Source: a virus (taxonomy: Duplodnaviria > Caudoviricetes). From it: a stretch of 64,000 bases of DNA. Location of the stretch: positions 3,877-67,876 of IMG/VR virus record IMGVR_UViG_3300028591_005034, one strand, 5' to 3'. The notes under the pieces were generated by a model. It did no database searches, was not told where the DNA came from, and worked only from the letters and a program-made list of their open reading frames with translations. The position numbers and the translations under genes were made by a program. Below, piece after piece: positions 3,119-64,000 of this stretch; within the stretch, counting starts at the first letter, position 1, and each line of letters starts with the position of its first letter.

Positions 3119-3640
3119 ATGCAAAGAAAAAAGCGTTTAATAAGGATAACAGAAAATCAATTGAAAGAAGCTGAAACATTTAGTTTTCTTAATGGTACAA
3201 GCGAACCGCATTGTGATGGCCAAAGGGCAATATCGGCTGACGGAAGGTTGAATGATGACGATTACGGACAACCTGAAACTACTGATGATATTGCCGATAC
3301 CGTCAGCCCACAGGCGTATCTAAGATATTTTGACAAAATGCATGGTGGCAACGGTATAAGAAGAATATGGGAATCGGATGAAGATAAAAATGGAGACGGT
3401 GCTGATGATTTCACACAAAAACCAGATAAAGATTTACTGAATGATAATGACTTCAACAATGATATTGTCAGAATACCACCTATGGTCATCCATAAATTAA
3501 AATTATTTCTTGAAGAAGTCGCAAAACATAATTTGACTGAAAGAAAGAAATATATCATTTTATCACATATTTTAAAAGTGCTTGGTTTACATAATCTACC
3601 ACCAAGTTATCAAAGAGACCTAAGAAATACAATCCATTAA
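3119..3640 (+). CDS. Hypothetical protein with N-terminal RLIRITENQLKE leader
   Basis: 173-aa ORF, TATTTAT at 3084-3090, shared leader motif. Confidence 0.65.
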   Translation: MQRKKRLIRITENQLKEAETFSFLNGTSEPHCDGQRAISADGRLNDDDYGQPETTDDIADTVSPQAYLRYFDKMHGGNGIRRIWESDEDKNGDGADDFTQKPDKDLLNDNDFNNDIVRIPPMVIHKLKLFLEEVAKHNLTERKKYIILSHILKVLGLHNLPPSYQRDLRNTIH

Positions 3641-3649
3641 TTTATTGTT

Positions 3650-6600
3650 ATGTTACATATTTTGAATGAAGGCGGTAATGCCGAACTAAAAAATAGATTT
3701 TTTCCACTGGGTGACAATATAAGGAAACACCTTCAAAGAACATTGAATAGTTATAGTGGCGATAAGGACGTTGATGGTTATAAACGTCTGGTTAACATTT
3801 TGTCTATGGAAAACGGAATTGCCTATAACGAAATGAAACGCATTAAGAATTTCTTTGACAATTTTAAGGGTTCACCAAAATCAATTGAATTTATCTTAAA
3901 TGGTGGACAACCGATGATGTTATGGGTTAATGCGACTTTGAATAGGGCAACACAAGCAGTAAAGGATTTTAAAGCAGCCAAAAAAGCCGCAGGCGTTAAT
4001 AATGCCTACATTAAACCTCATGAAAAAAATAGACAAACCAAAACAACAGGTCCAACAACCGCAAAGATTCAAACAAAAAATGTGACAAAAAACATTGATA
4101 GTAACAGTTCAATAAAATATGAAAATAAATCACATAAAAAAAGTGTGATTACTGAGTCTCAGGAAAGCAAATCTATTTCCGCAGCAAAAAAACTTGTGAT
4201 GGATAAAATGGGTTGGGATGAACAACGCGCTGACAAATTTGTGCGTGAAGAATTACGTGGAGATATACCCACATTGCGCACAAAAAACGGTGGCAAATTC
4301 ATTCTTGGTGTCACAAGAATGTTCCTTGACCGACAACTTACCGATGGCGGTATAATACAACAGTTAAATAGTACACTTGAACTTGTGGCCAGTGACGCTC
4401 ATATCAACGAATATGACAGAAACTTGAATGGTTTATCAGCACAGGAACTGATTGACAGATTTGCCACAGCAAGACAAGAAATTGGTGATAAAGACCGTGA
4501 AGAAAATGCTGCATTAGAACTACAACAAAACAATGATTATACCATTATACAAATTGATAATTTTGAACAAGCCTCACAATATGGACAATACACATCTTGG
4601 TGTGTGACACACAATGAAAATATGCTTGATTCATATACGTCAGGTGGTATTGGACAATTCTACTTTTGTCTTAAGAACGGATTTGAAAATGTTCCAGAAG
4701 AACAAGGTGAAAACTGCCCGTTAGATGAATACGGTTTGTCTATGGTCGCTGTAAGCGTAGATGGTGATGGAAATCTAAACACCAGTACTTGCCGTTGGAA
4801 TCACGATAATGGTGGTAATGACCACATTATGGACACCAAGCAGATAAGCCAACTTATTGGTAGGAATTTCTATGAGGTATTCAAGCCGAATAACAAATGG
4901 AAAAATGCGCTTGAAACCGCAATGCAACGTCTTGCTAATGGTGAAAGGCCACAAGAAATTTTTGAAAACACTTATTCAAGTGGTAATGGTTTTATTATAG
5001 TACATATGTTAAAAAAACGAAATGTTTGTGTCTATGATGAAAGTAGTAAAAAATATAGATTACTTTTCCCCAATTTGTGGTTTGATGAAATTTATTATAT
5101 CGAGCAAAACAAAATATTTGAAGTATGTAAAAACAGAAAATGGAACTGGCTTAAAGAAGACGGTACACTACTGTCACCTAATTTATGGTTTGATAACATC
5201 ACAGATTTCGTAGAAAATAATTTGGCGTTTGTCTCATTAAATGAAAAAGTTAACTTATTTAGCATTAATGGTGATATATTGTGCGACAATTGGTATGATG
5301 AAATATCAGCGTACCATGATAATCTTGCCAGAGTTGTTATTAATCGAAAATGCGGTTTCATAAATAAAAATGGTAAGTTAGCTTTCAATAAATGGTTTAT
5401 ATCTGCAAGTCATTTTAAAAATGGTTTTGCTGTAGTTATTTCAGACAACGGTTATAATATAATTGATGTCAATGGCAATTTCATATCAGAACAAGGTTTT
5501 GATTTTTGCGATGAAATGAAAGAAGGCTTTGCTAGGGTTCGTGTAAAAGAAAAATGGAATTTTATTGGCACAAACGGTAATATGTTATCAGAAATATGGT
5601 TTGATTGGTGTTCGAGTTTTGAAAACGGATTTGCCATTGTTGAAAACGAAGAAAAACAAAACTTTATTAAAACAGATGGTAATTTAATATCTGACCGATG
5701 GTATAAAAGTGTGGATGAATTTAATGAAGGGTTTTCTGTTGTCGAGGAACGTGCCAATAATGGCAACATGATGTATAACTATATTGATACAAATGGTAAA
5801 TTGTTATCAGAAACATGGTTTGATTGGTGTTCTGATTTTGAAGGTGGATTGTCGTTTGTTCAAATGTTTTTTGAAGACCAACACACCACATTGAAAAATT
5901 GTATAAAAACAGATGGCACGTTAGTTTCTCCTAATAAGTGGTTTAATTATATTGAAAAGTATAACTTAAAATATTTGAAAGTTGTGGATTATGTTAATAA
6001 CAAAAGACTTCAAAACCTATTAGATATTGAAACAGGAGAAATACTTTGTGATGAATGGTTCGATGAAATATTCTCAACTCATAATGGTTTTACAAAAGTT
6101 ACGAAAGAATCACTAGGTTGTAATTTTATTAATACAGATGGCAATATAATATCTGATAAGTGGTTCTATGATGTGTCCAATTTTAATAATGGCTTTGCAA
6201 GAATTTGGAGAAGAGATTATGGTAGCAACTATATCAATACCAATGGTGAAATAATATCACCTAATCTATGGTTTGATGAAACATATGATTTTGATGATAA
6301 TGGTTTGGGAGTTGTTCGTTATAATAACAGATATAATCTAATTGATGGCAACGGTAAATTTGTATCAGACCAAGGTTTTTCTTATATTGCCCCTTCTTTT
6401 GCCCCTTCAGGTGATTTGTATGTAGGTACCTCGTTAGATGGAAAACCGATTAAGTTTAACTCAAAAGATAACACAATATCTCCAATGAAGAAGATAAACC
6501 GTTTTGAAGCCAAACAAAGGAAAACCATAACAATTACAGAATCACAAGCATTTGACCTGCTTCTTGAAGCTGCGTCACTTGATGATATATATGCAAAATA

Positions 6601-10268: not shown

Positions 10269-10913
10269 TTATCTATCAGACAAAACTTTACTAACAGCAT
10301 TTCTGATTACGTTATGTAATTCACTTTCTGACAATCTTACGCTCTTTTTCCTTTTTCTGCTTTCAGCAACACCTGAACCTTTTATAATGTCGGAAACCTC
10401 TGGTGGAAGTGTAGACAAAACTGCCGAAGGATTTAGTACGTTATCATATACGTCTGTAAATATTACATTACTATGATTTCTTGCAACACCAGCAATGACT
10501 AAGCGTGAACGTTTAGCTTCTCTTCCATTGTCAATAACATAGAAATCATAATCCTTATAATAATATTCTAAAAGTCCTGGGTCAGTACCTAAACAACAGT
10601 TATTTTTGAAAGGTAATGATGCAAATTCTTCAAATGTACTTAATTTCCAAACAACACACTCACCATCATCGTAAACTTTTTGACCAGGCATACGGCTTCT
10701 CATTGAATCACGATGTTTCATTTTAGTTTTATCGTGTATCATTGGGCTATCTTCCAAACCTTTAAGGTCTGGTTGGTTCCATACATCGCGAGGTTCTGAG
10801 TTATACTCATCCCACAGTTCTTTTGGTAAAAAGAAATATTCGTTAATAACTCTTTTTGCCGACTCCTTAACTAATTTATGTAAATCATTTTCATTTAATT
10901 TAATTCTTCTCAT
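10269..10913 (-). CDS. Hypothetical protein carrying the leader motif at both ends and a degenerate PcfJ-like core
   Basis: Likely start ATG 10913 (MRRIKLNENDLHKLVKESAKRVINE), downstream of ATAAATA 10934-10940. C-terminus KKSVRLSESELHNVIRNAVSKVL. Confidence 0.7.
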   Translation of the reverse strand: MRRIKLNENDLHKLVKESAKRVINEYFFLPKELWDEYNSEPRDVWNQPDLKGLEDSPMIHDKTKMKHRDSMRSRMPGQKVYDDGECVVWKLSTFEEFASLPFKNNCCLGTDPGLLEYYYKDYDFYVIDNGREAKRSRLVIAGVARNHSNVIFTDVYDNVLNPSAVLSTLPPEVSDIIKGSGVAESRKRKKSVRLSESELHNVIRNAVSKVLSDR

Positions 10914-10986: not shown

Positions 10987-11607
10987 ATGTTATCCAAAGA
11001 AAAACTAAATACAAATTTCCTTAGTTTTATCAAACGGCTTGAGAAATACGGATGTTACTCAAAAGAAATGATTGATGAAATGGGTGATGCTATCAAGTCA
11101 TGTGCTTTTTCAATGAATGATGATTCAGGCGCGGCATATGAGGGTTCAATGATTGATGTTGTTCTAAACAGGTTATGTAAACTTGCTTATGACATTAATG
11201 AGTTTGGATTTGGTGGTGAAGATAAAATAAAACACCCAATTCTTAAAGTCAATTTTGAAATGTTGATGCGTGTCTTGTTGTTACAACATATTGGAAAGGC
11301 ACAAATGTTTGTAGAAGAAAAAGAAGTGTGGAGGAAAAACAAGGGTTTCAGATACAAGTTCAATGAAAATCTTGTTTCAAATCTTAAACTTGGTGAGAGA
11401 AGCCTTTACATTTGTCAGAAATATGGTATTCCTTTAACTGAGGAAGAATATGAAGCAATAAGGATTATTGATAAGACTGATGATACAAAGGGAGACATAT
11501 ATTCTTCACCATTGGCAATTATTACCAAGATGGTGAATATCATGGTCTCTATGGAACTAAAGAAAGAGTGGGAAAATAAAAAGAAAAACGAAGGAATAGA
11601 AGAGTGA
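10987..11607 (+). CDS. HD-domain-like protein (degenerate motif)
   Basis: RVLLLQHIGK resembles LLHDIGK; GIPLTEEEYEAIRIID is typical of phage HD-fold proteins. Confidence 0.45.
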   Translation: MLSKEKLNTNFLSFIKRLEKYGCYSKEMIDEMGDAIKSCAFSMNDDSGAAYEGSMIDVVLNRLCKLAYDINEFGFGGEDKIKHPILKVNFEMLMRVLLLQHIGKAQMFVEEKEVWRKNKGFRYKFNENLVSNLKLGERSLYICQKYGIPLTEEEYEAIRIIDKTDDTKGDIYSSPLAIITKMVNIMVSMELKKEWENKKKNEGIEE

Positions 11608-12137
11608 TGGAAAGTGTTAATTGTAAACCTGCTGCTGATAATAGCAAACCAATTGGTTTTCCTGTATTTTTTGTAAATTTATCACCAAACGAAGGTCCTG
11701 ATTATAATAAGATAGAAGATAGTGGCTTTGATTTAAGGGCTTGGATTACAGAAGAAGAGGGCACCAATCAATACTCAAAGGAGTCAAAAATTGTACTTAA
11801 ACCGTTAGAAAGAAAACTTATACATACAGGACTTTACTTTGAACTACCACCTGGTTATGAAATGCAGATTCGGGCAAGAAGTGGAATGGCTCTAAAAAGG
11901 GGTTTAGGTGTTTTAAATTCACCTGCAACAATAGATTCAAATTATAGGGGTGAAATAGGTATTATTGCAGTTAATTTATCGAATGAAGATATTGTAATAG
12001 AAAACGCTGAACGAATTGCACAGGGTGTTATTTGTCCTGTTTTGAATAAATGCAAAGGTGTAGAATTGATAAAAGTTGATAAACTCCGTAATACTGAGAG
12101 GGGTTCACAAGGTTTTGGGGATTCAGGTGACAAATAA
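11604..12137 (+). CDS. dut: Trimeric dUTPase
   Basis: Motifs SGFDL, RARSGMA, PATIDSNYRGEI, ERIAQ, RGSQGFGDSG. Confidence 0.95.
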   Translation: MMESVNCKPAADNSKPIGFPVFFVNLSPNEGPDYNKIEDSGFDLRAWITEEEGTNQYSKESKIVLKPLERKLIHTGLYFELPPGYEMQIRARSGMALKRGLGVLNSPATIDSNYRGEIGIIAVNLSNEDIVIENAERIAQGVICPVLNKCKGVELIKVDKLRNTERGSQGFGDSGDK

Positions 12138-12170
12138 ATCCAAATTAATTATGGGTAATTTTCATTAAGA

Positions 12171-12200
12171 TGTGGCCAACAATGGCCACATTTTTTATTT
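12171..12200 (+). terminator. Intrinsic terminator after dut
   Basis: TGTGGCCA-ACAA-TGGCCACA followed by a T-run. Confidence 0.7.
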
Positions 12201-12256
12201 GTAGCATATTGACAATTGTTTGTTTTTATTTTAATTTTATGTAAAATGTTAATGTT

Positions 12257-12478
12257 ATGGCAAAACCTGATATAAATAGATTAAAAAGGAAGTATGAAAA
12301 GGAAAATACAGATAAACTGTGTTTATATTATGAAACTATTCTTAAAATTAGAGAAAGTTATGCAAAATATAGGCAAATAAATCCATATACACAAGAATAC
12401 AAGGACAAATATGATGAATTATATTATGTGGAAGAAGTAATTCGTGAAATAATAAGAGAAAGGTTAATCGAGGTTTAA
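12257..12478 (+). CDS. Hypothetical protein
   Basis: 73-aa ORF after TTGACA at about 12210. Confidence 0.55.
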   Translation: MAKPDINRLKRKYEKENTDKLCLYYETILKIRESYAKYRQINPYTQEYKDKYDELYYVEEVIREIIRERLIEV

Positions 12479-12481
12479 TTT

Positions 12482-13585: not shown

Positions 13586-13691
13586 ACTTAAAGAAATTAT
13601 TGATGAAATCAAGAAGGACAGGAGTCTTATGCTTGAAAACCGCGAGAAAAAATGTTACAATAATAATAAAGAAGAAAAAACTGTATAAATT

Positions 13692-14141: not shown

Positions 14142-14144
14142 GTT

Positions 14145-24652: not shown

Positions 24653-25603
24653 ATGTTAGAAGAGATAATAAAACATACAATTAATACTTATATAAGGGAG
24701 AATTACAGGATAGGCGATGGTGATGATGAATGCTACACAAGGTATATTGATGTTGAAAGCGAATTATCGAACTATAACCTAAGTGGTAAAATTATATATT
24801 GCCCATGTGATAACCCGTCACACTCAGCATTTTGGAAATACTTCTATAAAAATTTTCATGATATTGGTTTACTATGTCTATATGCGACTTACGTGTCAGA
24901 TGAACCAATGTTATGGAAATATGATGGTGAAAATATTGAAAAAACACCGATTGCATCGGGTAAGTTCCAAGATAATGGGGATATTATTGAATTATGTGAT
25001 ATAGTAGCCACAAATCCACCATTTTCTTCAAGACAAACTGAACAGTTACTTGATATGGTAAAAGAACGTGGTAAAGATATTATTACAGTGGGAAGAAAGA
25101 CTTTTGCTTCTTCGGATAAGGTGTTTGGTTATATAAAAAGTGATGAATTAAGAAATGGTTATAATGACATTAATCGTTTTATGCATCCTGATGGTACGGA
25201 AAATAAACATTCTGCTGCATGGTACACAACATTACCTGTAAAAAGAGGTGATTATAAAACAGGTAAAAAATATGACCCAAGTTTATATCTTAAATATGAT
25301 GATTATGACGCAATAGAAGTACCAAGTGTTAGAGATATACCTGATGATTATGATGGCTTAATGGGTGTACCTAATAATGGAGGTGGCTTTTTAAGAGTAC
25401 ATAATCCAGAACAATTTGAAATTGACACCAAAATAAGAAGGCCAAAGATTAATGGTAAACCTGTTGGTGGAGATAGAATACTAATAAAAAGAAAGATGAA
25501 AGAAAACATAAAAAGAACAATAAAATTATCTGAAAATGATTTACACAATATAGTAAGAAAAATCATTTATGAAATAAATTTAAAAAATATACCCGAACAG
25601 TAA
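24653..25603 (+). CDS. Adenine-specific DNA methyltransferase, EcoRI family, with leader-like motifs at both ends
   Basis: IIYCPCDNP, GKFQ, DIVATNPPFS, YDDYDAIEV...IPDDYDGLMGVP; C-terminal KRTIKLSENDLHNIVRKIIYE. Confidence 0.8.
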   Translation: MLEEIIKHTINTYIRENYRIGDGDDECYTRYIDVESELSNYNLSGKIIYCPCDNPSHSAFWKYFYKNFHDIGLLCLYATYVSDEPMLWKYDGENIEKTPIASGKFQDNGDIIELCDIVATNPPFSSRQTEQLLDMVKERGKDIITVGRKTFASSDKVFGYIKSDELRNGYNDINRFMHPDGTENKHSAAWYTTLPVKRGDYKTGKKYDPSLYLKYDDYDAIEVPSVRDIPDDYDGLMGVPNNGGGFLRVHNPEQFEIDTKIRRPKINGKPVGGDRILIKRKMKENIKRTIKLSENDLHNIVRKIIYEINLKNIPEQ

Positions 25604-52054: not shown

Positions 52055-52357
52055 CTATGCATATTCCACAAGTTCCTGTCTTTTCCATCTATCAAAATCT
52101 TCTGCTGTGGCTGGGTGTGCATTTGCTACGGGGTCAGACATCCAACGTTTTGACATCAATCTATTTTCAGCGATGGCTTCAGCATCTTCTTTTGTTGCAG
52201 CCTTAACGAGTAAGAATACTTGTGTACCTGTATTGCTATAAGCATCTACTGACCAAACGCCCCACCACGTCTCATTGCTTTCTTTTAGTATTCTTTTCAC
52301 TGATTCTTTAATAACCCTATGTAAGTCACTTTCTGTTAATTGTATAGTTTTCTTCAT
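52055..52357 (-). CDS. Small protein with canonical leader MKKTIQLTESDLHRVIKESVKRILKE
   Basis: Start taken at ATG 52357; ATAAATA at 52378-52384. Confidence 0.7.
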   Translation of the reverse strand: MKKTIQLTESDLHRVIKESVKRILKESNETWWGVWSVDAYSNTGTQVFLLVKAATKEDAEAIAENRLMSKRWMSDPVANAHPATAEDFDRWKRQELVEYA

Positions 52358-52401: not shown

Positions 52402-54762
52402 TTATACTACTTCATCAAAACTGAAACAATGTTCTTTCAGGTCATCAACGATTATCAAATCTGTAAGTTTGTTCTCTATGATATTCCTTATCAATCTCAC
52501 AACAGGTCTTGCTCCGTAATTCTTTGTTCCGTTCTCTTTTTCAACCTGTTCAAAAATGTAGTCGGTTGCCTCGTCAATGAACTTATCATCAAATGTGTGG
52601 CCAATGTTATTAACACGTTTTTCCAATTCATTAAGTTCAACGCGAATGATTCTCTTAATATCTTCATTCGTAAGTGTGTTAAACATGATGATATTGTCAA
52701 TCCTGTTAACGAATTCAGGCTTGAAGCGTTTGCTTATCTCGGAATTGATAATGTCACGCCCCATTTTCTCGTTCTTGTTGAAACCAACACCGTTTCCTCT
52801 GAGTAAAGCCTCCTTAGTTCCAATGTTTGATGTCATGATGATAATACAATTACTGAAATCAACTGTCACACCTTTGTTATCCGTAAGCCTACCTTCGTCA
52901 AACAACTGCAGGAATACATCATGCACCTCGTCAGCAGCCTTTTCAATTTCATCAAGAAGCAATACGCAATGACTATGTTTCTTAACAGCCTCAGTAAGGA
53001 TACCACCGTTTTCATAACCGACATATCCAGCAGATGAACCGTAAATTTTATTCACACTTGTTTTGTCATTGTATTCACTCATGTCAATTCTTACAAACGA
53101 TTTCTCGTCACCGAAAAGTTCTTTGGCCAATACTTTTGAAAGGTAGGTCTTACCAGTACCACTGTTTCCGACAAACATCATGACAGAGGGTTTTCCTTGT
53201 TTTCCTAATCCAACCCTTTGGCGTTTTACTGTCTTTACAACTTCTGAAACTGCTTCATCTTGACCGATAACCTTTTCTTTTATATGTTTTTCCAAAGTAA
53301 GCAATCTTTCGCGTTCCTCGGTTTTTATGTCCGATACAGGTACAGAACTTATGTTTTCTATTATTTCATGAAGGTCTTCAATACCAATTTCTTGTTGTGT
53401 GTTACTGAAAGACAACTCTTTTTTTCTTTTTTCAATTTCAGACGAAACACTCACTTCGTCTTCCGAAAATGATTTATAAGATTCATCGTCGTGTTCAACC
53501 GCTGCACGTTCTTTTGCTTCTTGTATCTCAGCCAATGTTGCCTTTAATTCAATCAAAACTGTATCTTCTTTTCGTTTAAGGTCAACAAACGCTCCGACTT
53601 CATCAAAAACGTCTATTGCTGTTTGCGGCAATACAGCATCTGGAATATATTTTTTTGTGAGTTTTACACATTCGTTTATTATGTTATCGTCATATTTCAC
53701 GTCATGGTAAATCTCATATAACTCCTTGTTTTCTTTTAGAATTTCAACTGTTTCTTCTTCTGTTTTTTCTTCAACTTTTATCTTTTTAAACAACTTTGGA
53801 AAATGTTTATCAGCATCAACCCTATTATAACGTTCCTCTATTGCCGTAGCCAGTACGCAAATCGCTTTATTTGTCAGCAATTGCTTTACCATATCAACAT
53901 ACGGGCTTCCGTCATAAATAAGCAAATCTATATCAGGAACAAAGAAAATGTAACAACCACGTTCTTGGGCATCAGTCAAAATCTCATTGAAATGTTGCAT
54001 AAGGTTGTGAAGTCCGTCCTTAAAATTAACAACTATGTGATTTCTGTAAGATAATGGTGCTTCTCCATGATAAATCATTTGTGCCACCTGCTTAACAATC
54101 GCTGTTTTACCCACACCGCGTTCGCCAAGCAATAAAGCGTTATTACAATCGAATTTTGAGAAAGCAACAAAAACAGACTGTATTACGCTTTTGTTTCCTA
54201 TAAAATTAATGGCAGATTCATTGGACATTTCATAAAGTTGCGGGATATACTCATCAGTAATACTGTGAACCTTATATTCAAAACCTTTTTTATGTTTTTT
54301 TTGTGTCCCTTTCGCTGTCTCAGAGTTTAATGAAGATAAAGCATTATTCAATTGTCCCATATTAACACCAAGAACTGAGAACGTATTTCTCAATGACCTA
54401 TTGTTTTTAAGTATTTCCAATAAAAGTTGTGCTGAATTTATCTTGTTTTTACTGTTACCCATGAGGTTTTCAAGATATTTGTCATAAACATCATCAAATT
54501 TAGGAACAAAGCCTTCTGTATTAATTGTGTTTTCTGTTTCTTGCTTGAGATATGAAATTAAGTCACTTTTAAGTGAGGACTTTCCGTTACTTAACATGGT
54601 CTTGTCAATTATCTGATATGCTGTACATTTGTCGTTATCGAGCACACCTACCACAAAATACTCAATTCCAATTACTTTTGTGGGATAATCCGTTGTTAGT
54701 TTGTCCTGTATATATTTGAAAACCTTCTTAAGTTCAGGTGTTAGGTTGTTTTTCATTACCAT
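52402..54762 (-). CDS. ClpC/ClpA-like double AAA+ protein with degenerate first ATPase ring
   Basis: D2: GNSGTGKT, RIDMSEY, GYVGYENGG.LTE, LLDEIEKA, GRLTD, FKPEFVNRID, YGARP. D1 keeps GERGVGKT but lacks the DE Walker B. VGF loop and a UVR-like middle segment. Confidence 0.85.
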   Translation of the reverse strand: MVMKNNLTPELKKVFKYIQDKLTTDYPTKVIGIEYFVVGVLDNDKCTAYQIIDKTMLSNGKSSLKSDLISYLKQETENTINTEGFVPKFDDVYDKYLENLMGNSKNKINSAQLLLEILKNNRSLRNTFSVLGVNMGQLNNALSSLNSETAKGTQKKHKKGFEYKVHSITDEYIPQLYEMSNESAINFIGNKSVIQSVFVAFSKFDCNNALLLGERGVGKTAIVKQVAQMIYHGEAPLSYRNHIVVNFKDGLHNLMQHFNEILTDAQERGCYIFFVPDIDLLIYDGSPYVDMVKQLLTNKAICVLATAIEERYNRVDADKHFPKLFKKIKVEEKTEEETVEILKENKELYEIYHDVKYDDNIINECVKLTKKYIPDAVLPQTAIDVFDEVGAFVDLKRKEDTVLIELKATLAEIQEAKERAAVEHDDESYKSFSEDEVSVSSEIEKRKKELSFSNTQQEIGIEDLHEIIENISSVPVSDIKTEERERLLTLEKHIKEKVIGQDEAVSEVVKTVKRQRVGLGKQGKPSVMMFVGNSGTGKTYLSKVLAKELFGDEKSFVRIDMSEYNDKTSVNKIYGSSAGYVGYENGGILTEAVKKHSHCVLLLDEIEKAADEVHDVFLQLFDEGRLTDNKGVTVDFSNCIIIMTSNIGTKEALLRGNGVGFNKNEKMGRDIINSEISKRFKPEFVNRIDNIIMFNTLTNEDIKRIIRVELNELEKRVNNIGHTFDDKFIDEATDYIFEQVEKENGTKNYGARPVVRLIRNIIENKLTDLIIVDDLKEHCFSFDEVV

Positions 54763-54882
54763 TCTCTTGAAATTAACATTTTTATAAATAATAAATGGAT
54801 GCCATATCAATTTCAATACTAAACAAAGAAAGCGTCCATTCTTGAACGCTTCTCTGATATGTTTTAATTACATAACATAAGA

Positions 54883-55167
54883 TTAAAAACGCATATAATC
54901 TGACAGCAATTCGCGACCTCTTTCCGTGTCAACATATGCTGCTCCATCTTCATCAAATTCTATTTCCATCCAATCCGTTGGTTCTCCACCATAGAATCTG
55001 AAACGTGCGGCATCACCATAAGGTGATATTTGGATTTCGTGCCCACCAAGATTTGAAGTAGTTCTAAAACCATGCGGCTCAAAATCTTCCTGTTCTCTGA
55101 GTAATCTCTTGACCGATTCTTTAATCACTCTATGAAGGTCTTGTTCTGATAATCTAATTCTTCTCAT
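54883..55167 (-). CDS. Small protein with canonical leader MRRIRLSEQDLHRVIKESVKRLLRE
   Basis: 94-aa ORF; ATAAATA at 55186-55192. Confidence 0.7.
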   Translation of the reverse strand: MRRIRLSEQDLHRVIKESVKRLLREQEDFEPHGFRTTSNLGGHEIQISPYGDAARFRFYGGEPTDWMEIEFDEDGAAYVDTERGRELLSDYMRF

Positions 55168-55235
55168 AATATTTAATGTTTTCTTATAAATAGTTGCTTT
55201 ATTTCTTGTGATTCCACTTTTTATTACTTATGGTG

Positions 55236-55877
55236 TCATTTCCTTGCATTCTCCAAAATTGCTTCGCAAAATTTATATAATGTTTCAATTTCTAAATCAG
55301 ATTTCATTTGATTAACCGCCATACATACTAATTGTACATTTCCTATAACATATCCCTTACTGTGATTTATCTGGTCAATTGATACATTAGTTGGTGTCCT
55401 TCCGTTGCATTGTTCAAATGTCATCGGAATTCCACATATGGCACATTTTCCATTTTGTTTATCCCACAATTCTTTCAGATATTGCTTTGTGATGTTAAAA
55501 GGTAAGGATTTTCTCTTTGAACGGTCTCTTGCTACTAGATACCTCATTTGTAGAACCTTAAATAATGCGTACTCTTCTGGATATTCCATCTTCAATTCAT
55601 TAGCCCTTTTCGTCCTACAATTTCGGCATCTGGCATCGTGATGGTCTCTATGCGGATAATGGTCTGTTTTTGCGAAGAAACTGACTGGTAGGAATTCTCC
55701 ACATTTATGACATTTCAGCAACTCGCCCATCCATTCATTATTGCGTTTTTCTATGTCCTCGCAATTTCTGCAAATTGTGTGGAATTTACCACAGCCATCT
55801 CGTTTGAAAAATTCTCTTTTTAATGGTAGCTCTTTCCCGCAAATGGGACATACAATGTGTTTAATAGTTTTAGCCAT
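55236..55877 (-). mobile_element. Free-standing His-Me-finger (HNH-like) endonuclease, probable homing endonuclease
   Basis: Multiple CxxC pairs; CAICG...SIDQINHSKGY..GNVQLVC..VNQMK. Confidence 0.7.
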
Positions 55878-55919
55878 AATATTGCGTTTTATTATAAATA
55901 GCGCAATAATGGTAAAATT

Positions 55920-56930
55920 TTAACCGTCTGCTTTTAATGGTTTCCAACCCCTTTTCGCCATTCTAGCAAAATTTGCCCTTTTTCTTGTCAGTGGATTTTT
56001 CGAATGCGTCAGTTCTTCTGTGGATTTTCCCGTTCTTTTCTTTGTTGCTGTAAACTTGCCCTTGTTTTCGGGTTTAATTTCGATTTTTTCATCAATGACT
56101 TGTTCAACGATGCCAATAATCATGTTACGCAACTTAGACTCGTTAAGTTTATTCAACTTATTCATTTGTCTGCATTCAAAAACCCTGTCTTGTGGCTTTA
56201 TACCATCTCTGAAATATCTGTCAATCTCGTTAAGAACAGTTCTCCAATCAGCATCGTCATAAAATGTATAGGTTACGCTGTGCTCACTGTTATCCGTCAT
56301 GAAATCAACATAAAGTCTGTCCTCAGAATATGAACTTATTACCCGTGCTAATGTATTCTTTTGCTCACGTGTTGGTTCTTTTCCGATATCAATTCCATTC
56401 GGTAATACACGAATATTTCCTAATTTTATGAAGTGAAATGTGCCGTTTACACCTGGAATCATTCCGCATTCATTATGTTCTGCATCCGTATAAACGACTA
56501 CACCATTAGCAAGTATAAAACCTCTTGCATCTTTAAAATATTCACCGTGTGGTAATATCTTCATTGCTGCATTTGCAAGTTCATACGGGTCATTAACATC
56601 AAAATCTTCATCGAATAAATCCATTTTATCCATGAAACCTTCCTTTGTTCCACTCTCAAGGTCTGATAATATTGACTTCGCGACCTTTTCTCCATACTCT
56701 TCAACAAGGTCATCATATGAGAAATCGGCATATTCACCCGTACTATGAAAGGTCTCGTGGTCAACGTATTCGCAAGTGAACGTTACATTATTTTCAATAT
56801 ATTCTTTATATGCTTCCGGTGAGTCCTCCATTTCTTCATCAAGAAGCCAATCTTCATATTCATCACGGTCAAAATCCCATGAATAATTAAACCCACCTAT
56901 GGTATTTGTGTCAGGTATATTGTTATACAT
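55920..56930 (-). CDS. Hypothetical acidic protein with C-terminal KLNESKLRNMI..IVE motif and basic tail
   Basis: 336-aa ORF; ATAAATA at 56956-56962. Confidence 0.65.
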   Translation of the reverse strand: MYNNIPDTNTIGGFNYSWDFDRDEYEDWLLDEEMEDSPEAYKEYIENNVTFTCEYVDHETFHSTGEYADFSYDDLVEEYGEKVAKSILSDLESGTKEGFMDKMDLFDEDFDVNDPYELANAAMKILPHGEYFKDARGFILANGVVVYTDAEHNECGMIPGVNGTFHFIKLGNIRVLPNGIDIGKEPTREQKNTLARVISSYSEDRLYVDFMTDNSEHSVTYTFYDDADWRTVLNEIDRYFRDGIKPQDRVFECRQMNKLNKLNESKLRNMIIGIVEQVIDEKIEIKPENKGKFTATKKRTGKSTEELTHSKNPLTRKRANFARMAKRGWKPLKADG

Positions 56931-56994
56931 TATCAGTTAATTTAAGATATTTATAATAAATAGTTCTAATAAAGTTTAAAAACCATAAATCGCA

Positions 56995-57342
56995 ATGAAA
57001 AAGGTACTTATTATAACAGGTTTTATACTTTCAATGTTATTCGTTACATCATGCGAAACAGTTGAAGAAGTGTATGATGACACGCCCACGTATACAGTAA
57101 TAGTACGCGAAGGAACTCCGTACTATTATTATTACGGCCATTATTACACATATCCACCCGTTCGTTATCACTATTATTATCGTGAAAGACCGCACAGACC
57201 AAGACCTAACTGCAGTGGCGTTCCAGCACCAAAACCACACAAAAATCATGATTTCTCAAGACCGTCAAGACCTTCAAACAATGGAGGCGGAAGACCGCAT
57301 ACTAGTGGGAATAGAAACGGAAAAGGAAGAACAAGACGTTAA
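56995..57342 (+). CDS. Putative lipoprotein with Tyr-rich and Pro/Arg/Gly-rich disordered regions
   Basis: MKK-hydrophobic-VTSC lipobox-like signal. Confidence 0.65.
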   Translation: MKKVLIITGFILSMLFVTSCETVEEVYDDTPTYTVIVREGTPYYYYYGHYYTYPPVRYHYYYRERPHRPRPNCSGVPAPKPHKNHDFSRPSRPSNNGGGRPHTSGNRNGKGRTRR

Positions 57343-57368
57343 ATAACACACATACACACACGTAACAC

Positions 57369-57656
57369 ATGAAATTTGTAAATTGGCTAAATTCCCTTGT
57401 TAAAAGTAATAGTGGCGTAAGTTCAAAAAGTTTTTTTCTTGTGGTTGTCACATTTATTGGTTGCCTATTGTTACTTGTGCCCGTATTTACACTGTCAATT
57501 GAAGCAATTTTCCTTCATACAATAGCAACAGACCTTACCGGTATGGCTGCTTACATAGGTTCAGTTGCCTCATTGTTTGCAACAGCAGGTTTAACAAAGG
57601 CTTGGAGTGAAAAATACGAACACCACAATCATCCACCAAAACATGAGGATTTTTAA
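57369..57656 (+). CDS. Two-TM membrane protein, holin candidate
   Basis: Two hydrophobic helices and a charged C-terminus, near the endolysin. Confidence 0.5.
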   Translation: MKFVNWLNSLVKSNSGVSSKSFFLVVVTFIGCLLLLVPVFTLSIEAIFLHTIATDLTGMAAYIGSVASLFATAGLTKAWSEKYEHHNHPPKHEDF

Positions 57657-57697
57657 TAATTCTTGATACTATTTATATAAAAAAACAAAGAAACTTT

Positions 57698-58267
57698 ATG
57701 AAAAGGACAATAAAATTAACTGAAAGTGACCTACATAATATAGTAAAGGAAAGTGTAAGAAGAATACTCAATGAAGAGATTGATACGGGTCAAGTTAAAG
57801 CCGCATGGGAAAAGGAGCAAAAACCACCAGAAAGCCCAAGGGTTAAAAGGATTAGACAGGAAATAGCAAGATTACGCAGGGAAATTGATAAAGCCGAAGA
57901 AGCTGGTGAAAATATTAAGCCAATACAAGACCAAATCAAACTCTTGAAAAAACAAGCTGGTTTTACTAACGTTGAAGAATCAAGGGAAAGCGAAATGGAC
58001 ACTGATTGGAGAAGCATGACAGAGCCTTCTTATCCTGAAATGCAAATGATGAACGGCAAAATGTTTTGGCCAGATGAAAATCTTAACATATATGATACAC
58101 CATATCATACAACACAACATAAACATGGAAATGACGCAATGAGGGCATTAAGTGGTTCAAAAAGGGCACAACAAATGCGTTCAACAGTAAGAGGAATGCG
58201 TGACGCTGGTATGGATGTTGGAAGCAATTACGATTGGATGATAAACGGAGACCCAAGAAGAAAATAA
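57698..58267 (+). CDS. Protein with canonical leader MKRTIKLTESDLHNIVKESVRRILNE
   Basis: 189-aa ORF; TATTTAT at 57670-57676. Confidence 0.7.
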   Translation: MKRTIKLTESDLHNIVKESVRRILNEEIDTGQVKAAWEKEQKPPESPRVKRIRQEIARLRREIDKAEEAGENIKPIQDQIKLLKKQAGFTNVEESRESEMDTDWRSMTEPSYPEMQMMNGKMFWPDENLNIYDTPYHTTQHKHGNDAMRALSGSKRAQQMRSTVRGMRDAGMDVGSNYDWMINGDPRRK

Positions 58268-58288: not shown

Positions 58289-58708
58289 ATGAAACTATCA
58301 AAAAACTTCACATATGAGGAAATGATTGCCTCAGCAACAGCAAAAAGGCTGAAGATTGACAACACCCCAAGTGTCAAAGAATTGGGTGAACTGAGGAAGT
58401 TGTGTCAGCAGATACTTCAACCGATTAGGGATAAGTACGGAAAGTGTATCACTGTAACTTCTGGTTATCGTTGTCAAAAACTTAACAAAGCGGTAGGGGG
58501 AAGTTCAACCAGTCAACACGCATTAGGTCAAGCAGTTGACATCACATTGGGCACACCAACACTAAATAAGAGATTGTTCAATCTTATACTTGAGATGATT
58601 AACAAGAAAGAAATCAAGGTCGGTCAGTTGATTGACGAGTACGGATATAGATGGATACATATTTCACTACCATATCATAAGGTGAACAACATCTTACATA
58701 TAAAGTAA
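58289..58708 (+). CDS. Peptidase M15 family endolysin-like protein
   Basis: LSKNFTYEEM, VTSGYRC..LN.AVGG...SQH..GQAVDI, WIHIS. Confidence 0.88.
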   Translation: MKLSKNFTYEEMIASATAKRLKIDNTPSVKELGELRKLCQQILQPIRDKYGKCITVTSGYRCQKLNKAVGGSSTSQHALGQAVDITLGTPTLNKRLFNLILEMINKKEIKVGQLIDEYGYRWIHISLPYHKVNNILHIK

Positions 58709-58787: not shown

Positions 58788-60614
58788 TTATTCTTCGAGA
58801 AACTTTTTCAAACGTTCCATATTGCCATCGTCTTTTTCAAGGAACGATGCAAGACTCTCAAAAAGGTTAAACTTATTTTTCTTATTGGTCTTTTCAGTCT
58901 TATTTATTTCCCTAACATTCTCTTCGGGTTTCGTATCATCAATTTTCTGAATTGTTTTTACTTTAAATTTGGCAAGTTCTGAATAGCCCGGTGACTGTGC
59001 AATTTCACGACCTGTTATTTTTGATATTGCATATTCTGCATTTGTTAATTCAGTCATAATTGCCGATGGCTCAACAAGACTTCCACTTGGTTTTATTTCA
59101 TTTTCATCCACAAACCCCAATTTTAACTTCGGGCGCGTATACGCGACATACATAAGATTGCGTTCTTGAATTTTTTCCCAATCGTGATGTGCAAGTTTTG
59201 AGGGCATTGACGAATGGCACAATATGTAGACGTTTTCTGCTTCAAGTCCTTTTGCCTTATGAATAGTTGAAAGACAAACCCCATCTGATTCATCTCTGAA
59301 AATATCTTGAATTTTTTTAATTAGTGTTTTCTTATTTGGACAATGTTCAGCTAGAATGGAGAGTGAATTTATTGAATCGTAGAAATTCATAATTGGCGCA
59401 GAAAGTGTTGCGTCTGTTAGGTCAAGACCACGCTTTATCATTAGTTTATCTCTTTCTTTGAATAGTTTATCGTATAGCCTTATAAACAATCCGTCATGGT
59501 CAAGGTTTGGATATAATTCGTTTGTGTCGATATCCTCAATTAGTTTAATCAGGTTAGTTCCTATGTCTTGTCCTTTAATATAACAGTTTACGCCACGTCT
59601 TAGCAAACGTGTGTATAGTTTAAGTAAAGGCGTTTTTGACCTCGATAAAACCATATCACCCTCTTTGATGTCTCTAACGTGTACATTACTAACAATTTCT
59701 CCCTCTGGTGCATTTTCCCGTGGAAGCATATCTTTCACAAGTGTATTTGCAAACTTTGTGATTGATTTTGCACACCTATAGGTTATCGGCAAACTGAATA
59801 CTGTTGTGTTTTGGTAATTGCAAAGGAAGTCAAATGCCTCAGGTGATGAACCTGCAAAGAAGTTGATGGCCTGATTGCTGTCACCAACGGCAATAAACCT
59901 TGTTCCGCGTTTAAAGCACTTCATAAACAGTTGTATTGAAATCAGAGAAGCATCTTGCGCCTCGTCGAAGAAAATCCAATCGTACTGCAAACCAAGTGGC
60001 TTTAATGATAATTCACATGGAAGCCAAATCATGTCGGTATAATCTATAATATTATGATTTTCCTTTCCCCATTCGAGACATTTTAGAGCAACTTCACATT
60101 CGTCAAATGAAACAGGTATATCATAATTCAACGCAACCATTTTAATCTCCTTGAGACTTTGGGCATTATTGAAACGTGCAAAATCAATAAGTGCCACAAT
60201 GCTTGATGTGTATTCCTCTACCTGTTTAGGTGTAATCTGAACATCCTCGTCTATTCCTGACAAGTCAGCAAGATTCTTTTTAAGATAAACCTTGTACTTA
60301 TACTCATCAATTTCAATGTCATTACCGAAGTTTCGTCTGAGAATTGCATAACCAAGACTATGAAGTGTTCTAACGTGACAATTCGGATAGTCCTCAAGTT
60401 TTTTAGTAAGTTCCTCAACGATACTTTTGTTAAATGCTATGAAAAGACATTTCTTTGACTTCGGAACAAGTTTCATGGCTGTAATGATAGAAGTTGTCTT
60501 TCCGCTACCTGCCGTTGCTTTAATCACACCGTTACCCGTACCCTTGCGAACAAAGTCAAAAATCTTTTCCTGATATTCAGACGGTGTAAAACCGTAATCT
60601 ATTTTCTTAGCCAT
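58788..60614 (-). CDS. SF1 UvrD/Rep-like helicase
   Basis: ATAGSGKTT, FFDEAQD, VGDSNQAI, TYRC, STIHKAKGLE, LMYVAYTR. Confidence 0.92.
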   Translation of the reverse strand: MAKKIDYGFTPSEYQEKIFDFVRKGTGNGVIKATAGSGKTTSIITAMKLVPKSKKCLFIAFNKSIVEELTKKLEDYPNCHVRTLHSLGYAILRRNFGNDIEIDEYKYKVYLKKNLADLSGIDEDVQITPKQVEEYTSSIVALIDFARFNNAQSLKEIKMVALNYDIPVSFDECEVALKCLEWGKENHNIIDYTDMIWLPCELSLKPLGLQYDWIFFDEAQDASLISIQLFMKCFKRGTRFIAVGDSNQAINFFAGSSPEAFDFLCNYQNTTVFSLPITYRCAKSITKFANTLVKDMLPRENAPEGEIVSNVHVRDIKEGDMVLSRSKTPLLKLYTRLLRRGVNCYIKGQDIGTNLIKLIEDIDTNELYPNLDHDGLFIRLYDKLFKERDKLMIKRGLDLTDATLSAPIMNFYDSINSLSILAEHCPNKKTLIKKIQDIFRDESDGVCLSTIHKAKGLEAENVYILCHSSMPSKLAHHDWEKIQERNLMYVAYTRPKLKLGFVDENEIKPSGSLVEPSAIMTELTNAEYAISKITGREIAQSPGYSELAKFKVKTIQKIDDTKPEENVREINKTEKTNKKNKFNLFESLASFLEKDDGNMERLKKFLEE

Positions 60615-61215
60615 TATATCTTCCTATACGATAATTAAACAATTCATCATTATAGTTTTGTGTATTACTGAAGCCACAACGAGAAATCTCAGGACAGAAA
60701 CCGCGATAAACACATTCCCTGACCATTCTTGATGCAAGTTCTGGTTCAATTTTGCCAACCTCTTCTTTAACCTTTTGCCAAACAAAACGTGTCTCTGGCG
60801 ATGCACAATTACAAAGTCTCTTTTTCGAAATGTTAATCATATCTTGCGCATTGAGCAAAATCCTGTGGTCAACTAATTCCTCTTGAGACAGTTCACTTCT
60901 ATCAATACCTGTTCTATCGCTTCTTTGTGTTGCAACAAAGTGGTCATCACCCTCACCTTCTCTCATTGTGTGCCCCGCAAATTTATCATGTCGTGCAATA
61001 TGCTGAGAAACCCATGTCGGAACATTATATAATGTAATGACAAAAATAAGTGACCTGATTGGACTGTGTTCTGCCGTAAGGATACCTGTTTTAAATTCGT
61101 GCGACGGTTCTTTTTCTAAGTCACCTTTATTGACGGTAAATCTTGCTGCATTCAGTACTTCATTCCAATCCGTCAGTTTTCTGACTTCCACTTTCACTTT
61201 GCTCTTGTCCATCAT
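60607..61215 (-). CDS. ThyX-like flavin-dependent thymidylate synthase (divergent)
   Basis: AEHSPIR, WVSQHIARH, QRSDR, NAQDMINISKKRLC, CVYRGFCPE. Confidence 0.65.
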   Translation of the reverse strand: MMDKSKVKVEVRKLTDWNEVLNAARFTVNKGDLEKEPSHEFKTGILTAEHSPIRSLIFVITLYNVPTWVSQHIARHDKFAGHTMREGEGDDHFVATQRSDRTGIDRSELSQEELVDHRILLNAQDMINISKKRLCNCASPETRFVWQKVKEEVGKIEPELASRMVRECVYRGFCPEISRCGFSNTQNYNDELFNYRIGRYNG

Positions 61216-61702
61216 CTGTTGTTTCCTCCATTTCTTTAAATTGATAATTTATTGACATACACTTTAACAAACGCATAATGTTCACCTTATCCTCAACACC
61301 TTCAAAAATAACATTACCATTCAGTGACAGTCTGATTTCTTTAGAGTTTGGGTTCATCTCAAGAAGGTAAGAAAGATTTGTAAACGCTTCCTCAGTCACT
61401 CTGTTATCTTCTTCAAAACTCTTTCTTTTTTCATCAAGTTCTTCGATTGATATATCAGGCAAACGCTGACATTCATACTTTTTGATGTATGTTGAAAACG
61501 CCTTACCATTCGATTCAGCGTTTCTGAACATCAGATAATCAGTTGGGTCAACATTGTGGTAAATATACTGTCTACCACCCTTAAAAACGAGTTTTACGGT
61601 CTTAAACGCTTGGTTTGTGTCAATGCATTCACTATAAATGACATTACTGCTGTCGTACCAAGTGTAGTCTCTTGAATTTACATACTTGTTAAAAACTATC
61701 AT
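61160..61702 (-). CDS. KTSC-domain protein
   Basis: SSNV....LVFKGGRQYIYHNV....F.NAESNGKAF..YIK. Confidence 0.7.
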   Translation of the reverse strand: MIVFNKYVNSRDYTWYDSSNVIYSECIDTNQAFKTVKLVFKGGRQYIYHNVDPTDYLMFRNAESNGKAFSTYIKKYECQRLPDISIEELDEKRKSFEEDNRVTEEAFTNLSYLLEMNPNSKEIRLSLNGNVIFEGVEDKVNIMRLLKCMSINYQFKEMEETTDDGQEQSESGSQKTDGLE

Positions 61703-61718
61703 AATCTAAAAATTTTCG

Positions 61719-61749
61719 CAAATATACTACAAATTTCGGAAAAAACAAA
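61719..61749 (-). promoter_or_regulatory. Bacteroidota-type promoter
   Basis: TTTG (61746-61749) - 19 nt - TATATTTG (61719-61726) on the minus strand. Confidence 0.7.
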
Positions 61750-61804
61750 GGCAAGAACGCCTTAAACGCTCATGCCTTCCATGAAATACGATATTTCCCA
61801 CCGC

Positions 61805-62047
61805 TTATTCGCCACTGTTCTCACCGTCAGGGCATTCAATTCCGCAAACGTGCTTGATTTGTGGTGTAGGTGCTTGTCCGTTAAAGAAGAAACTTGTAAC
61901 CTCATTACCTGTGAAAACTTCCTGTGCTGGTTTGTTGTAGGTAGCGTTTCTCTGTGTGGGGATTGATTTGTACTCGCATCCCTCAATCACGCCCCATTCA
62001 AATGGGTTTGTCTTGTTTATCGTAATTGTGTTTGTATTTTCTGCCAT
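61805..62047 (-). CDS. Small hypothetical protein
   Basis: 80-aa ORF within an operon. Confidence 0.55.
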   Translation of the reverse strand: MAENTNTITINKTNPFEWGVIEGCEYKSIPTQRNATYNKPAQEVFTGNEVTSFFFNGQAPTPQIKHVCGIECPDGENSGE

Positions 62048-62062
62048 AATATTATTTTAGTT

Positions 62063-62440
62063 TTATCCGTTTATTAAAGTCTCTATTTGTTGGTTAAGGT
62101 CACTGAACTGAGACAAGAAGTCTATCTCGTTGAACTTAGAGTCAATATGCTCGTTAATCCTATTTACCGCGTCATTGATATCGCACTTTGTGGCAAGACA
62201 GATGTTGCAGTCATCACAACCGCATCCACCGCAATGGCACTCGCTTTTGCTTGCAATGATTTCATCCTTTGCACTGTCAATGTGTGTATTAACCCCGTCA
62301 AATCCGTCATTGATTGATGGTATAAGGCTCATTACAGCATTTGTGACAGCCTCTTCAATATCAGCGGTGTCAATGGCGTTGCAGCAATCGTTCTTAATCA
62401 GTGGTACATCATTTGGATAGCCGTAAGTGTAGTATTCCAT
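62063..62440 (-). CDS. Hypothetical helical protein with a Cys cluster
   Basis: CHCGGCGCDDCNIC within a coiled-coil-like sequence. Confidence 0.6.
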   Translation of the reverse strand: MEYYTYGYPNDVPLIKNDCCNAIDTADIEEAVTNAVMSLIPSINDGFDGVNTHIDSAKDEIIASKSECHCGGCGCDDCNICLATKCDINDAVNRINEHIDSKFNEIDFLSQFSDLNQQIETLING

Positions 62441-62976: not shown

Positions 62977-63060
62977 AATTCGTTATATATTTTATATATA
63001 AATATCTATTTTCAGACCGTTTTATAATGCCACGCAATATTTATTTTAAAAAACTTCGTA

Positions 63061-63606
63061 ATGAGTTATTTAGACAATATAATAGCCGAAACCATACGCA
63101 GATACGTGAATGAGGCTTCAAAATACGACAACAGCACAACCCGAATCAACAGCAAGGCTCAGGTCAACAGACATCTTGGCCATCCAATGTTTGTTGATAA
63201 CGGTGGCCATGCGTCAAATGACCAGCTGTCTCAGCCATCAACCGTGGATTGGAACGGCATCAACTTTGATACTAAAGGAAATGACATAGTTGTTTCTGAC
63301 AACAAGTTCATGTTCTACAAGATAAAGACATTTGGAACCGACCAAATAAAATGCACAAAAGACCTGTTTAACGGGGACAAGGATTTCAGAAAAGCAATTG
63401 ATATTGTAAATGGTGCTGCAGCAAGGAATGCAAGAACCGTTTATTGGAGAACGATAACATCAGAATCATTCAAACAGGGTTCTGAAAGCAGTGGACATAT
63501 GCTCAACACATTTTGGGAATTCAGTTTTAACAAGGAGGATTGGTTTGTATTCAAACCAAATCCCGTTCAGGAAATAAAACCTTCATCATTAGTACTTAAA
63601 AAATAA
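63061..63606 (+). CDS. Hypothetical protein with IIAETIRRYVNEA leader
   Basis: 181-aa ORF; TATTTAT at 63038-63044. Confidence 0.65.
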   Translation: MSYLDNIIAETIRRYVNEASKYDNSTTRINSKAQVNRHLGHPMFVDNGGHASNDQLSQPSTVDWNGINFDTKGNDIVVSDNKFMFYKIKTFGTDQIKCTKDLFNGDKDFRKAIDIVNGAAARNARTVYWRTITSESFKQGSESSGHMLNTFWEFSFNKEDWFVFKPNPVQEIKPSSLVLKK

Positions 63607-64000
63607 TGAAACTTTTCATACCGATACCCGAACCGCAGAAAACGATAATCATAACTGAAAGTCAGGCAAGACTTCTAAAAGAAGCAACTGACGGGCAATT
63701 TTCAACAAAGGAATTGTCCGCTTTATCTGATTTCAATGACATGGTTGCATACTGCAGACAACATCTTGGGGAAGAAATAGGTACGGGTAGTTCAAGAATG
63801 ACATTTCAGATAGATGACGAAAAGGTGTTGAAACTCGCATACAACGAAATTGGCGTTGCACAAAATCTTGAAGAATCACAATGGTATAAACAAAAATATG
63901 ACTTTATACCAAAAATTTACGAAAACGACAAAGATGATAAATGGATATTGTGTGAATTCGTATTACCAGCAGAAGAAAAGGATTTTGAACATTGTTTAGG
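63606..64000 (+). CDS. Protein-kinase-like protein with leader motif; runs off the right edge
   Basis: Manual translation: MKLFIPIPEPQKTIIITESQARLLKEA...EIGTGSSRMTFQIDDEKVLKLAYNEIGVAQNLEE...IPKIYE...WILCEFV (Gly loop, VxK, helix-C Glu). Confidence 0.65.
   Translation, partial: MKLFIPIPEPQKTIIITESQARLLKEATDGQFSTKELSALSDFNDMVAYCRQHLGEEIGTGSSRMTFQIDDEKVLKLAYNEIGVAQNLEESQWYKQKYDFIPKIYENDKDDKWILCEFVLPAEEKDFEHCL

Follow-up and report, generated by a model that had tools for sequence, protein, structure and literature searches.

The DNA analysed here, referred to throughout as the window, is a 64-kb stretch (64,000 nucleotides (nt), positions 3,877 to 67,876) of the 67,876-bp IMG/VR virus record IMGVR_UViG_3300028591_005034, a record from which a terminal repeat is absent. 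The window has a G + C content of ~34% and carries a T4-type head module on its minus strand. Our subject is a peptide of ~26 residues, consensus MKKxIRLTESDLHRIVKESVKRILKE, that recurs on proteins of the window whose remaining sequences (cores) are otherwise dissimilar; we call this peptide the tag. The data gathered below indicate that the tag is a portable module, and we lean towards the view that it may direct the proteins that carry it into the phage prohead.

A preliminary description of the window had pointed to near-identical peptides at the ends of proteins with unrelated cores. A hidden Markov model (HMM) built from the seven peptides quoted there and scanned against six frames of the whole 67.9-kb contig matched exactly those seven, at 42-55 bits, compared with 6 bits for the next-best six-frame match. 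These seven copies lie on six proteins between which neither Pfam searches nor blastp clustering detected any kinship, in full agreement with that first observation: four small proteins of no known family, an EcoRI-type adenine methyltransferase and a 336-residue protein. The copies are given below, followed by one half tag and one doubtful short form; TATTTAT is an upstream element discussed later.

57698..57775, plus strand: full tag at Met1 of the 189-residue protein 57698-58267; HMM 54-55 bits; TATTTAT 28 nt upstream.
52280..52357, minus strand: full tag at Met1 of the 100-residue protein 52055-52357; HMM 54 bits; TATTTAT 27 nt upstream.
55093..55167, minus strand: full tag at Met1 of the 94-residue protein 54883-55167; HMM 43-50 bits; TATTTAT 25 nt upstream.
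10839..10913, minus strand: N-terminal tag of the 214-residue protein 10269-10913; HMM 42-47 bits.
10272..10349, minus strand: second, C-terminal tag of the same 214-residue protein; HMM 33-44 bits.
25508..25585, plus strand: C-terminal tag of the EcoRI-family adenine methyltransferase 24653-25603; HMM 33-43 bits.
56088..56165, minus strand: diverged internal tag near the C-terminus of the 336-residue protein 55920-56930; HMM 30-42 bits; seed sequence.
3131..3166, plus strand: half tag (first half only), KKRLIRITENQL, close to the N-terminus of the 173-residue protein 3119-3640; TATTTAT 35 nt upstream.
63639..63665, plus strand: doubtful short form TIIITESQA in the frame from 63606 to the end; noise-level HMM score.

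The methyltransferase (24653-25603, plus strand) matches Pfam PF13651 at 5.6e-41, and the protein 57698-58267 has no match in Pfam or PHROG. Directly after the gene for the latter lies 58289-58708, encoding a Peptidase_M15_3 protein (4.7e-20) that is likely an endolysin.

The first count of about 15 tagged proteins, which included shorter forms, proved too high; there are six solid proteins, one with a half tag and a few doubtful cases. With an HMM enlarged from relatives, the half tag in 3119-3640 scored 12 bits (E 6e-4 among 68 open reading frames (ORFs)), the short forms at 42137, 44657 (internal), 63061 and 63606 scored at most 3.6 bits, which is noise level, and those at 3650, 8540 and 51093 gave no useful score. 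As a set the short forms exceed chance, although one by one they are at noise level: the pentapeptide [ILVFM][KRQI][LI][TSN]E occurs 11 times versus 3.1 ± 1.8 in shuffles, and 7 times within the first 30 residues, where 0.3 occurrences are expected. What stands of the shorter forms, then, is the significant one at 3119, the excess of the set and the form at 63606, whose orthologue in locus L015 keeps KVIKINESQ; the others are individually noise. The ORF 51093-51485 (130 residues, start MAKRIIKITEQ) overlaps the annotated start of 51385-51930, a protein that looks secreted and whose real start seemingly lies near an internal MMKRSTLIK signal-like segment.

All relatives of the phage were gathered through its capsid protein, which has more than 598 relatives in IMG/VR. 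Scanning beyond the contig, as had been proposed, extended the seven copies of the window by 46-56 further ones, found in 21-23 loci among 80 related head-module stretches and nearly all (~90%) placed directly after Met1; at the upper figure, 23 of 81 stretches hold 56 copies, of which ~50 are at Met1. Complete relatives measure 295-412 kb and fragments of 60-93 kb are rated only 14-25% complete, from which it follows that the window comes from a giant phage and covers part of its genome. The complete 295-412 kb relatives gave 15, 13 and 8 tag matches, and a 484-kb uncultured phage holds only weak versions of the tag. There is no close GenBank phage, as the head module gave no DNA match to GenBank phages. 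The closest cultured capsid relatives, at 38-39% identity, are those of Flavobacterium phage immuto and Microcystis phage Mel-JY01, in neither of which the tag was found.

Clustering by blastp sorted 50 distinct tagged proteins into 40 unrelated core clusters, among which Pfam finds only a methyltransferase, a NUDIX domain, WG repeats, DUF3008 and DUF4258. A profile search of 1.84 billion representative proteins returned 8,822 matches at E ≤ 1e-3 and 1,866 at E ≤ 1e-10. The top matches are proteins with two to four tag copies, all database members examined are unnamed metagenomic proteins, and a look-up of the tag in a protein atlas gave only unnamed short clusters at 0.85. A description of the motif was not found in the searchable literature, in which the string LTESDLH matches no paper, and the Jug-phage paper does not mention any N-terminal motif. 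The tag is thus a large and apparently undescribed family.

Among 331 unique tags, the two most conserved polar residues are E9 and E26, each of which stands two residues past a conserved Leu. E9 (in L7-T-E9) is kept in 95% and is followed by S, N, G or A in 90%, and the [LIVM]24-x-E26 motif is kept in at least 91%. By comparison, position 18 retains its Glu in no more than 59%, and the other acidic positions of the tag vary. When the coding DNA of 49 distinct tags was aligned, codon positions 1 and 2 held ~1-2 bits and position 3 held 0.04-0.5 bits. Because third codon positions are nearly free, selection acts at the level of the peptide, and the distribution of information over codon positions argues against a purely DNA-level role. 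This bears on the idea that the tag DNA is a recombination joint or the boundary of a mobile cassette, the peptide being functionless and its C-terminal and internal copies mere scars of swaps. Many database proteins do contain two to four copies; of the 177 internal copies in such multi-tag proteins, 65 still begin with a Met, which is what a fusion of ORFs would leave; and in the host-borne elements described below, units with differing cargo have only two DNA blocks in common, one of them at the start of the tag. However, the other 112 of the 177 internal copies lack this Met, C-terminal tags are kept in homologues, and the freedom of third positions under a preserved peptide indicates selection on the protein; we therefore judge a recombination joint highly improbable.

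Retention of the tag at either end is seen for two of the window proteins. The three closest homologues of the methyltransferase carry a C-terminal tag, while several at 38-45% identity have N-terminal variants. Two homologues of the 214-residue protein (86-90% identical) keep tags at both ends; its core has only two close homologues among 5.8 billion proteins. In an AlphaFold2 model of this protein, the N-terminal tag (helix, residues 8-27) and the C-terminal tag (helix, residues 196-213) are both lone helices, parted from the alpha/beta core by low-confidence linkers. A fold search with the core (model mc31731096da4) gave a weak likeness to MYST/GNAT-type acetyltransferases (E 0.03, TM 0.26) that is a lead at most. 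With 40 or more unrelated cores, selection acting on the peptide and tags at either terminus of orthologous methyltransferases, the initial proposal of a portable module finds good support in these sequence comparisons. In most cases a conserved [NDTA]-E-S-[KR] motif, which contributes one more conserved Glu, lies 8-10 residues upstream of an internal tag (NESK and DESR in database proteins P0001-P0150), and AESR (10330-10360) is its counterpart in the window protein 10269-10913.

The tag also occurs outside phages. A scan of prokaryote genomes with a degenerate DNA pattern for RLTESDLHxIV returned 24 true tag genes, nearly all in rumen Prevotellaceae or Bacteroidales, and this distribution points to rumen Prevotella as the host environment of the phage. 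Two isolates, Segatella bryantii DSM 11371 and Prevotella sp. MA2016, are among the bearers, and 16 of 18 such genomes hold just one or two tag copies, with host tag genes lying in ordinary chromosomal surroundings (glycoside hydrolases, TonB receptors, peptidases). Searches for the capsid protein and the S77 prohead protease in five tag-bearing Prevotella genomes gave no match, a weak negative in that the controls were silent too. The preliminary description did not foresee tags in host chromosomes, where they are found on IS1595 insertion sequence (IS) elements. The tagged gene has an IS1595-family transposase (DDE_Tnp_IS1595) tail-to-tail beside it in 15 of the 24 stretches, and terminal inverted repeats of 32-36 nt (GGCAATAACATAGAAGTTGACCCAA) enclose the two genes in an element of 2.5-2.65 kb.

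L101:662-3312: IS1595 element; repeats 662-693 and 3281-3312.
L088:448-2980: IS1595 element; repeats 448-483 and 2945-2980.
L084, L095-L104 and L107: further IS1595 elements with a tagged passenger.

The passenger gene of these elements starts with or contains the phage tag. DNA similarity between the IS units is confined to the transposase and to ~65-120 nt surrounding the start of the tag, and their cargo cores differ. The tail-to-tail arrangement within common inverted repeats would be expected if tagged genes were primarily accessory proteins of IS1595 elements that giant phages later acquired and multiplied, and one complete giant phage does carry an IS1595-family transposase. However, a phage has 8-15 tagged genes, unaccompanied by transposases or IS ends, compared with the one or two of host genomes; the phage-type GATATTTAT element is retained 27-39 nt upstream of seven of ten IS-borne genes; and the C-terminal half of one passenger shares 80% identity with a tagged gene from a phage head module. 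These three observations make transfer from phage to IS the more likely direction, and an origin of the tag in IS1595 elements seems very unlikely. Most simply, cassettes of promoter, tag and cargo would have passed from giant phages into IS1595 elements. The window itself contains no IS1595 transposase and no IS end sequence. In Segatella bryantii DSM 11371, the tagged gene L097:6932-7195 (87 residues) lies between genes for a glycoside hydrolase family 2 (GH2) glycosidase and a DinB-type polymerase, and a 52-residue IS1595 transposase remnant overlaps its 3' end.

The head module of the window comprises the following genes.

38819-40693, minus strand: large terminase (TerL).
36713-38773, minus strand: portal.
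35713-36660, minus strand: helical 315-residue protein (p315) between portal and protease, a candidate prohead-core protein, placed by gene order in relatives.
34891-35610, minus strand: prohead protease of the T4 gp21 type (Peptidase S77); PF03420 1e-19; PHROG 207.
33273-34793, minus strand: acidic scaffold in a gp22-like position; conserved in 71 loci.
31272-33236, minus strand: major capsid protein, gp23-like; PDB T4 gp23, 1e-25.

At least 11 relatives share the gene order TerL, portal, p315, one to four tagged genes, protease, scaffold, capsid. The slot between p315, which has no Pfam match, and the protease is the one that the small core genes 67 and 68 occupy on the T4 map. The protease scores 71 bits against PF03420 (cut-off 27) and 1.2e-10 against PDB 5JBL, with its H103 and S166 aligned to H85 and S140 of T4 gp21, so that the gp21-like protease named in the preliminary description is indeed encoded. 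The deposited 5JBL chain has Ala at the H85 and S140 positions, and catalytically dead gp21 is the H85A/S140A protein (PMC12991175). The S77 protease is present in all tag-bearing genomes tested. Its own N-terminus contains L-N-E, kept as L-[TVN]-E in relatives; the corresponding site of T4 gp21 is LIE-9 (PMC9026906). In two relatives (G007:C1:111707-113467 and LR756508.1:156570-158090), the protease matches as two halves ~1 kb apart in one frame of 576-600 residues, which suggests an intein or inserted domain; fragmented protease and portal genes are reported in the Jug-phage paper.

Sites of the same L-x-E type occur in the structural proteins of the head. The N-terminal helix of the scaffold ends in M-I-S-E followed by an acidic run, and relatives have [IL]-[LI]-x-E there. 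The capsid protein has two candidate maturation sites, I-K-E/T at residues 42-45 ([IVL]-[KR]-E-[NT] in all 72 relatives) and L-I-S-E/A at residues 56-60 (L-[IL]-x-E-[AS] in all 72). The second had been put forward as the equivalent of the T4 site, and its conservation is confirmed; in an ungapped alignment to mature T4 gp23*, however, the T4 cut falls nearer residue 45, favouring the first site. Profiles of the tag and of the scaffold N-terminal helix show a weak similarity (P 1.1e-3, probability 21%), which would fit co-assembly with the scaffold and is only a hint. A predicted complex of scaffold, protease and tag (score 0.01, mark 0.32) is used neither for nor against binding. The helix at scaffold residues 31-50 resembles the tag helix (TKDALKDIVDEAVNKNLRLM compared with TESDLHNIVKESVRRILNEE), and in distant relatives tag and scaffold share residues past the Glu (SEQD, EEQG).

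Together, these features suggest a mechanism in which the tag serves as a counterpart of the T4 capsid-targeting sequence, analogous to it but longer and equipped with a helix, an assignment to which we give somewhat better than even chances. The tag would be a self-contained address peptide, with a short extended start (M-K-K-x-I-R-L-T-E) followed by an amphipathic helix (S-D-L-H-R-I-V-K-E-S-V-K-R-I-L-K-E), that makes its carrier co-assemble with the scaffolding core of the prohead. The gp21-type protease would then cut after the conserved Glu pair, at L-T-E|S and I-L-x-E|, and the cargo, freed inside the head, would be delivered with the DNA at the next infection. Core binding, cleavage, presence in virions and injection are each what we infer from sequence and genomic context. 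This reading is favoured because the L-x-E sites of the tag resemble those of capsid and scaffold, because the S77 protease keeps its His and Ser, because tagged genes are embedded in the head module of relatives and because T4 offers a precedent that extends to Alt, with both its termini processed.

That precedent, invoked from the outset, is borne out by the literature. T4 gp21 cuts after Glu in L/I-X-E (PMC9026906), and the varied internal proteins of T4 enter the head by means of a conserved capsid-targeting sequence (PMC3012670; PMC5694885) of 10-20 residues that gp21 removes (PMC5694885); Alt is processed at both termini (PMC9026906), and multiple propeptide sites are thought to aid clearance (PMC5694885; PMC9026906). 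Like the T4 sequence on IPI, IPII, IPIII and Alt, the tag is a short conserved terminal peptide on unrelated proteins that, by sequence match, ends in L/I-x-E. As in T4, the window encodes a gp21-type protease, a gp23-type capsid protein and a scaffold, and one of its proteins (10269-10913), like Alt, would be processed at both termini, where it is tagged. Unlike the T4 sequence, the tag has two or three candidate cut sites, is found on 8-15 genes per genome and in thousands of protein clusters, and also occurs at internal and C-terminal positions.

The giant phages SPN3US, phiKZ and 201phi2-1 (PMC5694885) likewise have a gp21-like protease, which in them trims many inner-head proteins. Their paralogues share identical N-termini, and their propeptides contain multiple sites; these propeptides are long (to ~130 residues or more), mostly unshared between unrelated proteins and cut at A/S/G-x-E, in contrast to the one compact tag that is reused here on unrelated cores. 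The tag copies in host genomes recall the activation loops of CD-NTases (cGAS/DncV-like nucleotidyltransferases) from CBASS, a defence against phages that signals by means of cyclic oligonucleotides (PMC12991175), in that a host-encoded protein contains an L-x-E-type site, which in CBASS is cut by the phage prohead protease. Unlike in CBASS, no nucleotidyltransferase or known defence gene lies beside the host tag copies.

A further parallel is provided by encapsulins. Their cargo-loading peptides are short and portable, work at either terminus and bring unrelated cargo into a shell of the HK97 fold. They differ from the tag, to which they show no homology, in that they attach to the shell protein itself and stay on the cargo instead of being clipped off by a protease.

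Terminal peptide signals, N- or C-terminal, are also typical of substrates of AAA+ proteins, and a gene for a two-ring ClpB/ClpC-like AAA+ unfoldase (52402-54762) lies amid four tagged genes of the window (52055-58267). The tag might accordingly be a docking helix for a hub other than the capsid, either this unfoldase, which has a homologue of 33-39% identity in each of the five tag-bearing genomes tested and is conserved throughout the giant-phage clade, tag-less members included, or a replication or transcription factory. However, the unfoldase also occurs in the complete tag-less relative G014, and docking to it would leave both the near-invariant Glu pair of the L-x-E sites and the placement of tagged genes between core protein and protease unexplained. 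We consider this alternative unlikely, though less so than the others weighed here. ClpX (46130-47362) is not conserved in the complete tag-bearing genomes, and the idea that the tag is a ClpX degron was dropped on that ground. The conserved S, D and H residues of the tag could alternatively mark it as a leader for a modifying enzyme, as in ribosomally synthesized and post-translationally modified peptides (RiPPs). Against such a leader, no enzyme was found consistently beside tagged genes. A radical-SAM enzyme (PF04055) as partner was rejected for want of co-occurrence with the tag: there is no match in the window contig or in the complete relative G005, which has eight tags, and the domain is present in the tag-less G014. 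A RiPP-like leader has, in our estimate, very little chance of being correct.

The preliminary description also had most tagged genes sharing the motif TATTTAT with head genes. The window contains 43 copies, about the number expected from its composition, and 28 of them stand 22-47 nt before the start of a same-strand ORF, a strongly fixed position. Among the ORFs preceded by it are five of the six tagged genes as well as the scaffold, the protease, the 315-residue protein and tail-like genes; the methyltransferase gene is served through its operon. TATTTAT is missing from the blocks 10987-21910, 46130-48518 and 58788-62440. The element is likely a phage promoter class, and its pattern fits co-expression of tagged genes with head genes and is not specific to tagged genes. 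The sharing thus holds within the window, and in the relatives it amounts to no enrichment, as the element precedes 25 of 46 tagged genes and 126 of 276 neighbouring ORFs.

This lack of enrichment is one of several points that weigh against the capsid-loading reading. The complete relative G014 (345 kb) has the protease and no detectable tag, and the general co-occurrence of protease and tag is attributable to the sampling of relatives through their capsid protein. A search with tblastn matched the tagged proteins to no GenBank phage, and the tag is on none of them. The residue following E26 is G, S or A in only ~38% of the unique tags. The tag differs from the T4 capsid-targeting sequence in having 26 residues and a full amphipathic helix, compared with 10 in T4, and it has no sequence similarity to T4 MKTYQEFIAE beyond the initial M-K and the terminal hydrophobic-x-E. 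Because of this lack of likeness, the tag is to be seen as an analogue, not a demonstrable homologue, of the T4 peptide. Finally, tagged genes occur in Prevotella chromosomes that gave no capsid or protease match, inside IS1595 elements.

The host copies could also be fitted to the capsid-loading reading. IS1595-borne tagged genes might be switched on when a giant phage infects and their products then be loaded into the prohead or cut by its protease, as a "Trojan horse", as a decoy or protease tripwire comparable to the CBASS loops or as a means for the element to ride with the phage; we think this quite improbable. The same low expectation attaches to a proposal made jointly with it, that the injected effectors form an exchangeable pool, marked by the tag, whose members IS1595 carries back and forth between phages and hosts.

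If the capsid-loading reading is true, a single, easily recognisable 26-residue tag would mark the whole head cargo of a very large clade of uncultured gut and rumen Prevotella phages. That cargo would consist of thousands of unrelated small proteins together with enzymes, of which an adenine methyltransferase and a NUDIX hydrolase are examples, and toxin-like domains, and its list would be a catalogue of candidate injected anti-defence and take-over factors. The T4 principle of "load, then clip" would be extended to a tag that is longer, helical and functional at the N- as well as the C-terminus, and the tag would provide a handle for loading foreign proteins into phages of Bacteroidota. Through the IS1595 copies in host chromosomes, phage and host would have a further and unexpected way to exchange genes or to come into conflict.

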